A stretch of 28,107 bases of DNA from contig JBBRGL010000001.1 in the NCBI GenBank assembly GCA_038240675.1, positions 1 to 28,107 of the forward strand, given 5' to 3'. This DNA is from Peptostreptococcales bacterium (GTDB taxonomy: Bacteria > Bacillota > Clostridia > Peptostreptococcales > Acidaminobacteraceae). Below are positions 2,200 through 17,601 of this stretch, piece after piece. The notes under the pieces were generated by a model, which had not been told where the DNA came from, made no database searches, and was given only the letters and a program-made list of their open reading frames with translations. Positions within the stretch are counted from its first letter, which is position 1. Every line of letters begins with the position of its first letter. A program made the position numbers and the translations under genes.

Positions 2200-3384
2200 T
2201 TATTCAGCGTTTTTATAGGAGACGGTGTTGCGACCTTTGTGCTTTGAGGTGTACAGGCCGTCATCTGCACATTGGATGAGGGATTTAACGTCTTTGGCAT
2301 CTAGTGGGTAGCATGCCACGCCAATGGATACTGTAAAATGAGGATCTTCAGTCTTGGCGACACTTGCTCTAAACCGCTCGGAAATCCTCATGGCATTTTG
2401 CAAATCTGAATTCGGTAAAAGGATAATAAATTCATCGCCGCCGTACCGCGCCAATACATCTTGGTCCCGTATGCACTGTTTTGCGATGACAGAAAGTTGT
2501 TTCAGGCACATATCACCCGCTACGTGGCCTAAGGTATCATTGATGGTCTTGAATTTATCAATATCAAACATAAGGAGTGCGAAGGGCGTTTTATCGCGAA
2601 TCATTTCTTCTGAAAGGTTTAAAAACGCTTTTTTATTGAGACTCTTCGTCAAATCGTCTGTTTGAGAAATAATTTTAATTTTCTCCTTAGACAGTTCATG
2701 GTAAAACATATGTTTGTTCACTTCTTTGCGAACAGCGTCTTTAAAATCTTTCTCGATTTTGTTGGTTTTTGAAAGGGCTAATTTGAAAGTGTCTTCGATA
2801 GCATTTGACTGGAGGTGGATCAAGTCTAAAAGTGCACAGGCGTAGAGGACTTCAACGATGAGCTGCAAGCTGGCAGGTAGTCTGAAAGCAGACAAGAGAG
2901 CTGCTGAAAATAAAAAGCCCAAAAAGCCTTTTGGAAGAGGTGAATCTTTACGTTGACTGGCAATGACCAGGGTCAGAAAAGAAAGGGCAACACTTAGAAT
3001 ACCAATAAAGTGTATGGGCAAGGTATAACGTGATATAAAGGGACTTTCTATAAGAATCAATAACAAGAGAATTGATGCGGTCAGTCCAAAAATCCAATCA
3101 ATGATGCGACCACAGTTGTTTTTTCGCATAGAACCCAGAAATAAGGACAATATTAAACAGAGATGTAGTAATGCCAATGTATACATAAAGTTGAGATTTG
3201 GCCTAAGAATTAACGTCACAATGGGAATCAGGAAAAATGCTAAGAGGGAGTTGAGCTTAAAGAGCCTATCAGTCATATAAGTTTTATAGCGAATGCTTAA
3301 AAACAGATAAAGGGCACCGCAAATCATATAGAGAATAGAGATCAATAGGTTTGCTATTTCGAGATACAGGTTCAAACTGGTCAC
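2200..3384 (-). CDS. Membrane-bound diguanylate cyclase (multi-TM N-terminus plus GGDEF domain)
   Basis: About 7 hydrophobic segments, then DIDKFKTINDTLGHVAGD and RYGGDEF; I-site RDQD lies 5 residues before GGDEF. The real start may be the TTG at 3375, with GAGGTG as RBS. Confidence 0.92.
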   Translation of the reverse strand: MTSLNLYLEIANLLISILYMICGALYLFLSIRYKTYMTDRLFKLNSLLAFFLIPIVTLILRPNLNFMYTLALLHLCLILSLFLGSMRKNNCGRIIDWIFGLTASILLLLILIESPFISRYTLPIHFIGILSVALSFLTLVIASQRKDSPLPKGFLGFLFSAALLSAFRLPASLQLIVEVLYACALLDLIHLQSNAIEDTFKLALSKTNKIEKDFKDAVRKEVNKHMFYHELSKEKIKIISQTDDLTKSLNKKAFLNLSEEMIRDKTPFALLMFDIDKFKTINDTLGHVAGDMCLKQLSVIAKQCIRDQDVLARYGGDEFIILLPNSDLQNAMRISERFRASVAKTEDPHFTVSIGVACYPLDAKDVKSLIQCADDGLYTSKHKGRNTVSYKNAE

Positions 3385-3404
3385 CTCACTTGTGGGATAC
3401 TCCT

Positions 3405-3433
3405 ATTATAGCCTATGTCGTAAAGACTGTCAT
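3405..3433 (-). promoter_or_regulatory. Putative sigma-A promoter of the GGDEF gene
   Basis: Minus strand reads ATGACA-N17-TATAAT, about 20-30 nt upstream of the start codon. Confidence 0.6.
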
Positions 3434-3481
3434 TCGCTGTGATGTGAAATGGAAAATTTCCTGAAACACTGCATCTTTAAA

Positions 3482-3778
3482 ATAGCAGAGTGAATCGAAA
3501 GGGTTGTTCGGCGCTTCGCGTGGGACAGTAGTGGGACGGTTGTATGGGAGTGATTGGTTTGGGGTCGAGACCAGTTTAGGTCACTTTATGCTCATGATTT
3601 GAGTGTCAAAAGTAAGTTTCTCGATTATTCAAACTGCATATAGTTCCAGTTGAACATTCCGGAACTATATGCAGTATGAACAAGATCAACTACGGACTTT
3701 TGACACCCTAATCAATCTTCTGTTCAGAAGACAGAATCCCTTGCGTTACAATAGAACATTATCGCTTATGGTTCAGAT
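3482..3778 (+). repeat. Modular dispersed repeat, copy 1 (module A, palindromic 122-bp module, module B)
   Basis: 3489-3601 aligns without gaps to 16472-16584 (90/113 identical, 46/47 in the first 47 nt). 3715-3778 matches 16641-16704 (59/64). Confidence 0.9.
3594..3715 (-). mobile_element. Solo copy of the ~121-bp palindromic MITE-like unit, inverted relative to the array
   Basis: About 88% identical to the array unit (14 differences counted). Terminal inverted repeats are present and the copy is flanked by TC on both sides. Confidence 0.8.
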
Positions 3779-3833
3779 ATAAAATAAGCATGTCAGATAA
3801 GTCTAGTCGAAATAACTATATTGGGATATAATG

Positions 3834-3870
3834 AGATGGGGTTCGGAAAGACAGAACCCCATCTGTTTTT
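3834..3870 (+). terminator. Terminator-like hairpin with no annotated gene feeding into it
   Basis: 11-bp perfect stem AGATGGGGTTC / GAACCCCATCT, 9-nt loop, followed by GTTTTT. Confidence 0.55.
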
Positions 3871-3985
3871 GAAAACATCTCAAATAATGAGCAACGCTTT
3901 TTGCATTCCAAGTCCCAAAACCCCCTCAGGAAAACATTTTCCCAAACAGGCAAAGGTTTTCACAGCGTCTAAAAGACGAAATGCG

Positions 3986-4014
3986 TTGATTTTAAAAAAA
4001 CGCCGTGTTAAAAT
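3986..4014 (+). promoter_or_regulatory. Putative sigma-A promoter of secG-hppA
   Basis: TTGATT-N17-TAAAAT with an extended -10 TG (TGtTAAAAT), 33 nt before the secG ATG. Confidence 0.7.
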
Positions 4015-4047
4015 TGCCTTGTTAATTCACCGAAAGGAGGAACACAG

Positions 4048-4278
4048 ATGAATTTAGTTTTGACCATCATTTTGATTATCTCTTGTTTTGTTTTGATTGC
4101 GAGTATTTTGCTTCAATCAGGAAAAAGTTCAGGTATGTCAGGTGCGATCGGCGGCGGTGCGGAACAGCTTTTTGGCAAGCACGTAGCAAGAGGCTATGAA
4201 GCTTTATTTGATAAAGTGACAAAAGCTGGCGCAGTCGTTTTTATTCTTTCAGCATTAGCATTAGTCGTGTTTCAGTAA
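4048..4278 (+). CDS. secG: Preprotein translocase subunit SecG
   Basis: Two TM helices around LLQSGKSSGMSGAIGGGAEQLFGK; RBS AAGGAGG. Confidence 0.95.
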   Translation: MNLVLTIILIISCFVLIASILLQSGKSSGMSGAIGGGAEQLFGKHVARGYEALFDKVTKAGAVVFILSALALVVFQ

Positions 4279-4299
4279 TTTCTTGAGGGGGGAATTCGA

Positions 4300-6261
4300 A
4301 TGCAATTCAGTTATGTAGTTTTAGCACCTATTATAGGTGTAATCGCACTTATTTTTGCGTTCTATTTAGCAGCAAAGATCAACAAGGTTGAAGAAGGCAC
4401 AGATAAAATGAAAGAAATTGCCGGGTACATCCGTGCAGGATCTATGGCGTTTTTAAAAAGGCAGTACAAAACAATGATGGTATTTGTCATCGTAATGGCA
4501 GCTATTCTGACAGTGGGCGTTGATTTACCGACTGCAGGAGCTTTCGTTTTCGGTGCTTTTTTGTCCGCACTTGCAGGTTTTTTCGGCATGAGCGTTGCGA
4601 CTAAAGCCAATGTTCGAACAGCCAATGCAGCGCGGACGAAAGGGATGAATCAAGCGCTTTCAGTGGCTTTTTCGGGCGGTGCTGTAATGGGAATGGCCGT
4701 TGTTGGCCTTGGAATTTTAGGCCTTGGTATTTGTTTTAACATTATGCCTGTCCAGTACATCACTGGTTTTGGACTTGGTGCGTCTTCAATAGCGCTTTTC
4801 GGTCGTGTGGGCGGCGGTATTTATACTAAAGCTGCCGACGTGGGTGCTGATTTAGTGGGTAAAATTGAAGCGGGTATACCGGAGGATGATCCACGAAATC
4901 CTGCAGTTATCGCGGATAATGTCGGCGACAATGTCGGTGACGTTGCAGGTATGGGTGCGGATTTATTTGAATCTTATGTAGGCTCACTTATCGCTGCCAT
5001 CACTTTAGGCTCCACGCTTTTTGCAGGACCTGGTGTTATATTTCCATTTGCACTTTCATCGCTTGGCATTATAGCTTCTATCATTGCGACGTTCTTTGTC
5101 AGAGGGGACGAAAAATCCGATCCGCACAAAGCATTAAAAATGAGCACATACGTCTCTAGCGCACTTGTGGCTATTGGTTCGTTCTTACTCAGCCAACAAC
5201 TGTTTGGGAATTTAAATGCAGCTTATGCGATTATTGCTGGCCTTGTGGCTGGAATTTCAATCGGCGCCATCACTGAAATCTATACTTCAAGCGATTTTAA
5301 ACACGTCAAGAAAATTGCGCAGCAGTCTGTTACTGGTCCTGCGACGACTATCATCAGTGGTTTAGCAGTTGGTATGATGTCCACAGCTTATCCTATACTC
5401 ATGATTTCTGCAGCGACTTTAGTGGCTTACCACTTTATGGGCATTTACGGTATTGCGCTTGCTGCAGTAGGTATGCTTTCTACAACAGGTATTACAGTTG
5501 CCGTTGATGCTTATGGTCCTATTGCAGATAATGCAGGTGGTATTGCTGAAATGAGCAAATTGCCTAAAGAAGTGAGAGCAATTACAGACAAGTTAGATTC
5601 TGTTGGAAATACAACTGCCGCCATTGGTAAAGGTTTTGCTATTGGATCTGCAGCGCTTACAGCACTTGCTCTTTTTGCAGCTTATGCGGAGAAAGTACAG
5701 CTCAAGCAAATTGATATTATGAACCCTATGGTTGTCGTAGGTCTCTTTATCGGAGGAATGCTCCCGTTTGTGTTCTCTGCAATGACCATGGAGTCTGTTG
5801 GCCGTGCAGCGTTCCAAATGATTGAAGAAGTGCGTAGACAGTTTAGAGAATTTCCAGGGATTATGGCAGGCACTCAAAAGCCTGACTATGAGCGTTGTGT
5901 CGATATCAGTACATCAGCAGCCCTTAAAGAAATGGTTCTTCCAGGCCTTTTGGCTGTCTCTTCGCCAATTGCTGTTGGCTACCTCCTCGGCACTGAAGCT
6001 CTTGGTGGAATGCTTGCAGGAGCTGTTGTTACGGGTGTTCTCTTGGCGATCTTTATGGCCAACGCTGGCGGCGCTTGGGACAATGCGAAGAAGTATATCG
6101 AAGAAGGTCACTATGATGGCAAAGGTTCAGAAGCGCATAAAGCGGCAGTGGTTGGCGATACAGTCGGCGATCCGTTCAAAGACACTTCTGGTCCGTCTAT
6201 CAACATTTTGATTAAGCTTATGACCATCGTCGCTGTCGTATTCGGAAATCTGTTTATCTAA
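4300..6261 (+). CDS. hppA: Membrane-bound K+-dependent, probably Na+-translocating pyrophosphatase
   Basis: Motifs [35 protein letters not shown] and [16 protein letters not shown] (Ala) indicates K+ dependence; DLFESY places the Glu as in Na+-PPases. Confidence 0.95.
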
Positions 6262-6264
6262 TAG

Positions 6265-6753
6265 ATGATTAGGTATCAAAAGTCCTTAGTTGATCATATT
6301 CATGCCGCATAGAGTTCCGGAATGTTCAACTGGCACTATATGCGGTATGAATATTTGAGAAACTTACTTTTGACACTCTAATCATAGATGATTAGGTGTC
6401 AAAAGTCCTTAGTTGATCATATTCATGCCGCATAGAGTTCCGGAATGTTCAACTGGCACTATATGCGGTATGAATATTTGAGAAACTTACTTTTGACACC
6501 TAATCATAGATGATTAGGTGTCAAAAGTCCTTAGTTGATCATATTCATGCCGCATAGAGTTCCGGAATGTTCAACTGGCACTATATGCGGTATGAATATT
6601 TGAGAAACTTACTTTTGACACCCTAATCATAGATGATTAGGTGTCAAAAGTCCTTAGTTGATCATATTCATGCCGCATAGAGTTCCAGAATGTTCAACTG
6701 GCACTATATGCGGTATGAATATTTGAGAAACTTACTTTTGACACTCTAATCAT
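6265..6753 (+). repeat. Head-to-tail array of four ~121-bp palindromic MITE-like units separated by AG
   Basis: Units at 6265-6385, 6388-6507, 6510-6630 and 6633-6753. Each has 19-20-bp TIRs (ATGATTAGGTGTCAAAAGT ... ACTTTTGACAC(T/C/-)CTAATCAT) and an inner 25-bp imperfect stem with a 9-nt loop. AG also flanks both ends of the array. Confidence 0.97.
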
Positions 6754-6795
6754 AGATTTGGGTGTGAAAGACAGTCAATAATTGAATTTCAAGTG

Positions 6796-6826
6796 GCCCT
6801 CGTCGATTTATCGACGAGGGCTTTTT
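6796..6826 (+). terminator. Intrinsic terminator of secG-hppA, downstream of the repeat array
   Basis: GCCCTCGTCGA-TTTA-TCGACGAGGGC followed by TTTTT. Confidence 0.9.
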
Positions 6827-6940
6827 AATGCACCGAAAGATGGTTTATTTTACATTGAAAGCTATACATTTTGAGTTCAAAAGGTTACGATAGAAGGGTA
6901 AACACTGTGAATCAACACGCGCGCATCATAAGGAGGATTT

Positions 6941-16437: not shown

Positions 16438-16464
16438 TCGCGCGTAAACCCCCAAAGCATTCGT

Positions 16465-16704
16465 ATGGCATAGTGAATCGCAAGGGTTGTTCGGCGCTTC
16501 GCGTGGGACAGTAGTGGGGGGGAAGTATTCGGGTGATTGTTTTGGGGTCTCATTCAGTTCCAATCACATTACTTTAATGATTTGTTTAATCTCATAAAGT
16601 GTATAATGTTGATTGCTTTACACCGAAAGTCGACTCTAAAATCTTCTATTCAGAAGACATAATCCCTTGCGTTATAATAGGACATTATCGCTTATCGTTC
16701 AGAT
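16465..16704 (+). repeat. Modular dispersed repeat, copy 2 (module A, different ~64-bp central module, module B)
   Basis: Homologous to 3482-3778 in modules A and B. The centre (16577-16640) shares only its ends (ATGATTTG ... CTAA) with the palindromic unit of copy 1. Confidence 0.9.
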
Positions 16705-16730
16705 CAAATAGTTATCTTTCTGAAATAGCC

Positions 16731-16777
16731 TTGAATTTTTCCGTCAGAACGATATAATGTTTAGTATCTGGTTCTAA
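16731..16777 (+). promoter_or_regulatory. fabI promoter with a FapR-type operator over the transcription start
   Basis: TTGAAT-N16-TATAAT (16731-16758), then TTAGTATCTGGTTCTAA (16761-16777), one mismatch from the TTAGTA-N5-TACTAA FapR palindrome. Confidence 0.7.
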
Positions 16778-16830
16778 TACCAGATGCGGAACATTGCGGA
16801 CTTTTACTATTTTCATTGCGGAGGAAATTC

Positions 16831-17601
16831 ATGTTACTTCAGAATAAGAACATATTGGTAATGGGTGTTGCGAATAAATGGAGCATAGCTTGGGGTGTGG
16901 CGAAGCAGCTCAAAATTTTCGGCGCCAACGTTGTTTTTTCGTATTATGGGGAAACGAGCCTTAAGAATTTAGAAAAATTGCTAGCTGAAGAAAAATTTGA
17001 AGGTGCGCACTTGGTGGAGTGCAATGTGACAGTGGATTCAGAAATTGAACAAGCCTTCGAAAAATTAGGCAAGTCAGTCCCTGTCCTTCACGGTCTTGTG
17101 CATTCCATTGCGCATTCCAAAAAAGAGGAACTTGCTGGACGCTATGCGGATACTTCAAGAGACGGATTTCAATTGGCCCATGACATTAGTGCTTATTCCT
17201 TTGTTGCTGTCTGTAAGTATGCTGAAAAGCTTATGACAGAGGGTGGATGTTGCGTCGCAATGACTTACTTGGGCGGAGAGCGCGTCGTGAAGAATTACAA
17301 TATCATGGGTGTGGCCAAAGCATCCCTAGAAGCCAGTGTCAAATATTTAGCCCATGACTTTGGTGCGCAAAATATCCGGATCAACGCCATCAGTGCAGGT
17401 CCAATCCGGACTTTAGCGGCTAAAGGGGTCTCTGGCTTTGGAGATTTAATCAAGAATTTCGAAGAAAAAGCACCACTTCACCGTTTGGTCACTCAAGAAG
17501 AAGTTGGAAAGACCGCAGTATACCTCCTCTCTGATCTCGCCAGCGGTGTGACAGGCGAAAACATTCATGTAGACTGCGGCTATCACGTTTTAGGGTATTA
17601 G
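16831..17601 (+). CDS. fabI: Enoyl-ACP reductase FabI (NADH)
   Basis: Motifs GVANKWSIAWG, HSIAH, DISAYSF, YNIMGVAK (YxxxxxxK) and ISAGPIRTLAA. RBS GGAGG points to the ATG at 16831. Confidence 0.96.
   Translation: MLLQNKNILVMGVANKWSIAWGVAKQLKIFGANVVFSYYGETSLKNLEKLLAEEKFEGAHLVECNVTVDSEIEQAFEKLGKSVPVLHGLVHSIAHSKKEELAGRYADTSRDGFQLAHDISAYSFVAVCKYAEKLMTEGGCCVAMTYLGGERVVKNYNIMGVAKASLEASVKYLAHDFGAQNIRINAISAGPIRTLAAKGVSGFGDLIKNFEEKAPLHRLVTQEEVGKTAVYLLSDLASGVTGENIHVDCGYHVLGY

Follow-up and report, generated by a model that had tools for sequence, protein, structure and literature searches.

A gene-less repeat with 27-28-bp flanking duplications upstream of sigma-A promoters, probably a promoter-targeting MITE whose modular look stems from nesting and deletions

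Target choice is central to the survival of transposons and to their use as tools. Homing to the DNA upstream of promoters is known for one superfamily, TnGBS/ISLre2, which makes ordinary 8-9-bp target duplications. TnGBS, ISLre2 and some ISKra4 elements (p-MULT 3/4), a group with prokaryotic Mutator-like DDE transposases that is found in Bacillota, insert in a defined orientation and at a fixed distance upstream of sigma-A promoters, with the right inverted repeat (IR) beside the promoter, a distance of 15-17 bp between right end and -35 box, duplications of 8-9 bp and IRs that end in C (PMC3942029). Long target duplications are known from other elements. IS1630, a member of the IS30 family from Mycoplasma fermentans, has 27-bp IRs and makes duplications of 16, 23, 25 and 26 bp (PMC3317919), ISMhom-1, likewise of the IS30 family, makes duplications of 19-26 bp (PMC2853133), and two members of the IS1634 family, IS1634 and IS1549, make long duplications of variable length, i.e. 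8-514 bp (PMC2266710).

The window analysed here is a stretch of 28,107 nt on contig C1 of a Peptostreptococcales bacterium, and repeats were followed through the whole genome, a 2.57-Mb MAG of 347 contigs with 42% G+C that is 85% complete; its ribonuclease R points to Bacillota. An element that we call E is present about 100 times in this sediment bacterium; it has defined ends with inverted repeats, is flanked by direct duplications, lies next to promoters in a preferred orientation and in many copies contains a nested second repeat, P. E is very probably a non-autonomous, promoter-targeting DNA transposon (MITE) with a 27-28-bp target duplication, which would owe its modular look to nesting and deletions. 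Two copies lie in the window (Table 1). The original prediction had seen them as a modular repeat with an exchangeable centre, and a repeat finder recovers both shared parts, i.e. module A (3482-3594 and 16465-16577; 120 nt, 79%) and module B (3714-3778 and 16640-16704; 65 nt, 92%), as well as the differing centres, that of copy 1 being P, a palindromic unit of 118-122 nt. Both loci are thus real repeats, but the span first assigned to copy 1 was too short. The most unusual features of E, namely its true ends, the duplication of 27-28 bp of target and the position next to promoters, had been missed.

Table 1. Features of element E and associated repeats in the window (positions in nt)
Feature	Position	Strand	Remarks
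Left flank Xa of copy 1	3411..3437	+	27 nt; 27/27 duplicate on C93:135-161
Copy 1 of E	3438..3777	+	340 nt; left TIR, A, nested P, B with right TIR; old core apparently deleted
Left TIR of copy 1	3438..3462	+	starts TGTGATGTG; 17-18/25 match to reverse-complemented right end
Module A, copy 1	3482..3594	+	subterminal, G+T-rich, two GGGACRGTAGT boxes
Nested hairpin MITE P	3596..3713	+	TIR GATTWGRGTGTCAAAAGT; at start of B; 6-bp duplication AATCT(T/G)
Module B, copy 1	3714..3777	+	last 25 nt (3753-3777) are the right TIR, CAGA variant
Right flank Xb of copy 1	3778..3804	+	27 nt; 24/27 partner before a left end on C132
P-unit tandem array	6138..6867		same family as the nested cassette (repeat finder)
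Copy 2 of E	about 16456..16703	+	P-less, presumably ancestral form; A, core c and B
Spacer from right end of copy 2 to -35 box	16704..16730	+	27 nt; apparent surviving copy of the target duplication
Promoter-like site TTGAAT-16-TATAAT	16731..16758	+	belongs to the downstream enoyl-ACP reductase-like gene 16816-17601

Alignment of the sequences that flank the start of module A places the left boundary of E about 44 nt upstream of A, where conservation stops sharply at TGTGATGTG; on the right, conservation ends sharply at ...CGCTTATTGACCACA or ...CGCTTATCGTTCAGA (CACA and CAGA variants). The termini are imperfect 25-nt inverted repeats (TIRs) of the form 5'-TGTG...CACA or ...CAGA-3', and the left consensus end agrees with the reverse complement of the right end at 18/25 (CACA variant) or 17/25 (CAGA variant) positions, with TG...CA tips and an inner box, ATGTCCT, common to both ends. 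A genome-wide motif search for the termini located 97 left ends and 106 right ends, which are spread over many contigs. Complete copies are 151-454 nt long and no ORF was found in any of them. Copy 2 is 5'-truncated, with about 35 nt missing from its left end; neither the left TIR nor the left duplicate remains. E hence bears the features of a MITE, being small and non-coding, with TIRs, a duplication that differs from locus to locus and many dispersed copies.

Module B holds a promoter-like site, TTCAGA-18-TATAAT or TACAAT (16649-16678 and 3723-3752 in the window), which reads toward the host promoter. The majority subfamily lacks it, having TGCAAG instead, and promoter-like sites in the region of module B are no more numerous than in shuffled sequence.

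A direct duplication that is specific to the locus abuts E in 37 of the 46 copies that are complete on one contig. The distance between the last base of E and the point where the duplicate ends is 28 nt in 19 copies, 27 nt in 8 and 29 nt in 5; as one T is common to the duplicate, the TGTG tip and TTGACA, the true length of the duplication is 27 or 28. In 19 cases the two duplicates are identical, with an overall divergence of 2.4%, and 38 true pairs score 13-29 against at most 11 for 224 mismatched flank pairs that served as control. The duplicated stretch itself has no conserved motif, showing a C at the last position in 43/96 and a mild A/T richness, so that the distal cut is seemingly set by the distance from the -35 side, i.e. 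by a ruler. No empty site was seen; at one locus with a perfect 30-nt duplicate, the contigs of the public run stop inside the repeat. It is from the duplications alone that we infer insertion of E.

One locus has a more complex structure. On C152 (1489-2160, 100-200) a tandem pair of elements, separated by a 27-nt spacer (Xb), lies within one outer duplicate pair (Xa), and 1.7 kb away the same Xb stands behind a further right end, with TGTGAT and a partial Xb coming next. Such an arrangement could be the outcome of composite transposition or of repeated insertion at one site, in addition to a deletion remnant.

Directly after the duplication a sigma-A promoter (TTGACA, spacer, TGnTATAAT) is found at 74 of the 106 right ends. 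At these the best -35 match is located 26-28 nt past the right end of E, the mode being 27 nt (41 cases), and the distributions of promoter offsets in the controls, same-strand and divergent flanks, are flat. The bases that follow the right duplicate are T31 T31 G28 A27 C18 A22 of 37, and an extended -10 element appears at the usual spacing (G 21, T 29, A 27, A 23, T 28 of 37). A -10 match of at least 5/6 accompanies 50% of the E-adjacent -35 matches of at least 5/6, as compared to 2.5% of the approximately 40,000 TTGACA-like hexamers of the genome background, indicating that real promoters are targeted and not the hexamer alone. The longest downstream ORF is co-oriented with E in 82/103 cases and the upstream one in 54/95. 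About 30% of the right ends have no recognisable promoter at the expected offset, and a few copies of E are located at non-promoter sites. The enrichment at promoters may in part reflect purifying selection against insertions within genes. At C14:3650-3941 (minus strand) a short form of E lies 27 nt before the promoter of a tRNA gene, i.e. promoters of RNA genes are targeted as well.

The fixed position relative to about 100 promoters, together with the conserved GGGACRGTAGT boxes in A, would also suit a host regulatory module, either a binding-site array or a leader RNA, that is kept by selection and whose flanking repeats are by-products of recombination. We give this reading hardly any credence. 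Every locus has flanking repeats of its own, which always abut both ends and are of one length, the copies decay by deletion and truncation, as exemplified by copy 2, and E was found in 0/400 genomes of the order; moreover, E lies upstream of the promoter and hence is not a leader.

The modular look was at the heart of the original prediction, and in its descriptive part the prediction is confirmed by the genome-wide pieces: blastn against the own genome returns about 150 pieces of A, 98 of B, 35 of the copy-2 core c and 267 of P, many more than chance would give, which does away with the possibility that A and B occur at the two window loci alone and reveals a dispersed, modular and nested family that has been truncated and amplified, with the TIR-bounded P inside another repeat. 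Several architectures coexist (APB 32, AcPB 11, AcB 7, AAcPB 7, AAPB 6, AB 5), and P is also found in 138 solitary copies and in tandem arrays. The BOX repeats of Streptococcus pneumoniae are composed of boxA-boxB(n)-boxC modules and are not known to have a defined target duplication. The variety of architectures, the solitary P copies and the P arrays would fit a BOX-like repeat as well, in which A, the cores and B are shuffled and amplified separately and which possibly forms a structured RNA.

The junctions point to another origin of this variety. Alignment of representative copies identifies A-c-B, the type of copy 2, as the P-less form, and in A-c-P-B copies P (ends GATTWG...CTAATC) is located between c and B with AATCT(T/G) on both sides; solitary P copies show duplications of about 6 bp, too. 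The P/B junction is identical at 76 of 88 B starts, and each copy that shares it has its own 27-28-bp outer duplicate, which argues for a single entry of P and subsequent transposition of the composite. The independent swapping of modules that had been proposed is therefore not supported, P occupying one fixed junction with a 6-bp duplication in a composite that spread. Copy 1 (A-P-B) is devoid of c, and its break lies inside a 12-13-nt repeat, TGATTTGAGTGT, found at the start of both c and P, which explains why ATGATTTG had been noticed at the same offset in both copies. The A-P-B form thus appears to be a deletion derivative that arose between the 12-13-nt repeats. In short forms of E, c is joined straight to the last 11-14 nt of the element at a short repeat of about 8 nt, and 24 copies contain a 47-nt tandem duplication inside A.

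From these alignments the modular look would have three sources. First, P would have entered once, at the start of B, and the composite would have gone on transposing; second, short direct repeats would have given rise to deletions of either the old core or most of the 3' half; third, there is the 47-nt tandem duplication within A. Compared with this, separate shuffling of modules appears very unlikely, for every P inside E sits at the one junction, as expected of a single event, the variants are explained by deletions between the 12-13-nt and the approximately 8-nt repeats, and whole elements have inverted ends and target duplications.

The RNA side of the BOX-like reading fares no better, as there is no folding excess, the pairings are not family-wide and Rfam offers no match. 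At the gathering score Rfam gives no match across the window, and at an E-value of at most 1 there are sub-threshold miRNA-hairpin hits on P alone and none on copy 2. There is no match to a known IS end, either. The RNA-like features ascribed to modules A and B find no support at the level of the family. The octamer of A that was said to pair with B is CGAAAGGG in 30/34 copies, the perfect match being private to copy 2, and changes on one side relative to the B octamer CCCTTGCG are uncompensated. Likewise, the hairpin of B contains a mismatch in the majority form. Folding of the left 175 nt gave an alifold energy of -8.7, with z = -0.56 for the sense and z = +0.41 for the antisense strand, and the reading of A as RNA was rejected.

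The flanks of copy 1 are unlike each other and belong to different insertion events. The duplicate of Xa on C93 follows another right end and precedes TTGATT-N17-TATACT, the partner of Xb is found on the minus strand of C132, and a TATAAT is present at 3827-3832, downstream of the right flank. Copy 1 may be the product of recombination between two copies, or contig C1 may have been joined wrongly across the repeat; given the mismatched flanks, contiguity across 3438-3777 should not be trusted. A divergent GGDEF gene has a good promoter-like site, ATGACA-17-TATAAT (11/12), at 3405-3433 of the window on the minus strand; the site falls into the 27-nt left flank of copy 1, and 4 nt separate it from the end of E.

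The E and P families together cover about 1.9% of the assembly and are a main cause of its fragmentation. Of the 694 contig ends of this fragmented MAG, 51 fall within E or P pieces, so that contigs may have been joined wrongly across some copies. In practice, the assembly breaks at these repeats, which are probably also a source of wrong joins, one of them within the window. One sediment-metagenome run contains the locus as contigs, and no RNA run carrying it is listed among the sequencing runs. In run X1 the summed contig depth amounts to about 630-730 over the A part of E and to 3000-4500 over P, as compared to about 7 in unique flanks, which suggests that P is more abundant than its 267 assembled pieces, with the reservation that summed depth is not copy number.

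Outside this genome, E was not found in the collections searched. In 40 relatives and 400 genomes sampled from the order, the only matches were two chance hits of 23-31 nt in coding sequence; a 20-mer scan of genome and metagenome contig collections returned three bare 20-mer hits, blastn found no E in plasmids and phages, and neither of the two end motifs turned up in viral contigs. A parent element that combines the ends of E with a transposase was found neither in the 85%-complete assembly nor in the 400 order genomes, plasmids, phages, viral contigs and the two scans of contig collections, and the autonomous version with an ORF between A and B that had been envisaged was not found in the genome. 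Searches of the assembly for Cas1, RVT_1 (reverse transcriptase), ISLre2, ISKra4, IS256-type, IS30 and IS110 gave no hit, and NF033529, NF033572 and PF00872 gave none in the genome. NF033563, the model for IS30-type transposases, had no hit in the 85%-complete assembly, either, and the lone rve hit there belongs to an IS3-type element.

The mobile genes that the genome does contain were rejected as parents. The IS3-type element (C185) and an IS1380 fragment (C10) are unlinked to E and have unrelated ends, and no piece of E lies within 3 kb of any Y1 transposase gene, intact examples of which are found on C146, C272 and C26. An intact, single-copy IS1634-family transposase gene (C42:8800-11450, minus strand, 239-2092; 359 bits) has ends CGGGTTTTCGACAC... 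that are unrelated to E and P, and it does not stand beside any copy of E. The longest repeat of the genome, 700 bp, belongs to another family than E. It is present in four copies (C17:7500-8300, C228, C299 and C136) that are 93-95% identical, with ends GGGGTCAGGCCTGCAC, and contains a broken ORF with a weak match to Y1 transposases (C228, E-value 4e-4, one stop); a Pfam scan of its ORF fragments gave nothing significant. The origin of E as a REP/BIME-type repeat mobilised by RAYT, or as an IS200/IS605 derivative, was dismissed as well, in view of its long duplications and the lack of linkage to Y1 genes.

IS30-family elements are present in three relatives (G018, G036 and G074). They are about 1.2 kb long, with IRs of about 27 bp and exact 13-bp duplications, demonstrating that long duplications occur in this lineage; at least one of them lies directly after a terminator-like hairpin, and G074 has about ten full copies. 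As kin of E these elements were discarded, their ends being unrelated and sharing chance 12-mers only. As no linked enzyme or ORF-bearing version was found, the parent of E is missing, i.e. it is unassembled, located on an unbinned replicon, or extinct.

A transposase that is absent from the assembly and supplied in trans would insert E at sigma-A promoters, just 5' of their -35 hexamer and with its right end facing the promoter in every case. The transposase complex would bind the -35 region, recognising either the hexamer itself or sigma/RNA polymerase on it, and the two target strands would be cut about 27-28 bp apart. The right end of E would be joined about 27 nt before the hexamer, and the left end to the other strand at the 5' edge of the hexamer, so that gap repair would duplicate the 27-28 bp in between. 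In this way the 27 nt that precede the -35 box would come to stand on both sides of E, and the core promoter would be left intact. TTGACC is present in the right end of one E variant, and we speculate that the same DNA-binding surface may read both the end of E and the target.

Integrase-type DDE transposons typically have TG...CA tips and 25-nt inverted repeats, as E does, which makes an IS30/IS1630-like parent the first guess. A parent enzyme of the retroviral-integrase type of DDE transposases, e.g. an IS30/IS1630-like one, is accordingly no more than a tentative suggestion, plausible but short of probable. IS1630 reportedly targets inverted repeats rather than -35 boxes. CRISPR integrases duplicate one repeat sequence of long, fixed length at one locus, using a ruler from an anchor, and casposons make duplications of 14-15 bp at few sites. 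An integrase of this kind, Cas1/casposase-like or of a new class, could mobilise E if it were anchored on the -35 box or on sigma/RNA polymerase and carried out its second attack a fixed 27-28 bp away, just as CRISPR integrases duplicate their repeat. The fixed length of the duplication, the lack of a motif in the duplicated stretch and the single anchor motif on one side would all be in line with such an enzyme, and the locus on C152, with two elements and a 27-nt spacer within one duplicate pair, recalls the growth of an array. Nevertheless, we regard it as decidedly unlikely, since no Cas1 is encoded in the 85%-complete assembly, the tips and inverted repeats of E are those of integrase-type DDE elements, and long duplications are already known in the IS30 family, with 16-26 bp for IS1630 (PMC3317919) and 13 bp in the relatives.

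E, as a promoter-targeting MITE, may also report a machinery that has not been described, one that homes to sigma-A promoters and joins the two ends about 27-28 bp apart by means of a ruler, a geometry known otherwise only from Cas1-type integrases. The anchor would then be the -35 hexamer, or sigma region 4 or RNA polymerase bound there. We hold this to be rather doubtful; if it were true, a selfish element would have colonised about 100 promoters without inactivating them. In E, which is unrelated to the TnGBS/ISLre2 superfamily, 27-28 bp of arbitrary sequence are duplicated and abut the -35 box, and the fixed length of this duplication suggests that the transposase complex covers about 2.5 helical turns of target DNA, with the promoter as the point from which it measures. 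The enzyme, if found, would offer a new geometry of target capture and possibly a link between transposition and the transcription machinery. Moreover, the approximately 100 promoters whose DNA upstream of the -35 box has been displaced would constitute a natural test system for effects on expression.

A limited literature search yielded nothing relevant on 26-28-bp target duplications and no account of a duplication with a fixed length of 27-28 bp and a -35 box as its boundary, and we know of no characterised prokaryotic transposase with a fixed 27-28-bp duplication. Among small repeats, RUP and Correia elements have 2-bp TA duplications, and none of BOX, BIMEs, RUP and Correia is known to be tied to a -35 box or to duplications of about 27 bp. 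E resembles them in being small, gene-less, intergenic, modular and highly repeated. With Cas1 integrases E shares a long, fixed duplication and one anchor sequence, which is an analogy only, as the assembly contains no Cas1. The duplication of E is fixed in length, unlike the variable ones of IS1634/IS1549. IS1630 and ISMhom-1 come closer, in that their inverted repeats, like those of E, measure about 25-27 bp and their target duplications are long, but the duplication length of IS1630 varies whereas that of E is fixed, and this assembly contains no IS30 transposase. TnGBS, ISLre2 and ISKra4 insert in an oriented manner upstream of sigma-A promoters, as E does; E differs from them in its 27-28-bp duplication, in the distance of 27 nt from its right end to the -35 box and in its TGTG...CACA tips. 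In a combination of which we found no earlier description, E unites promoter targeting, as known from TnGBS/ISLre2, with long duplications, as known separately from IS1630.
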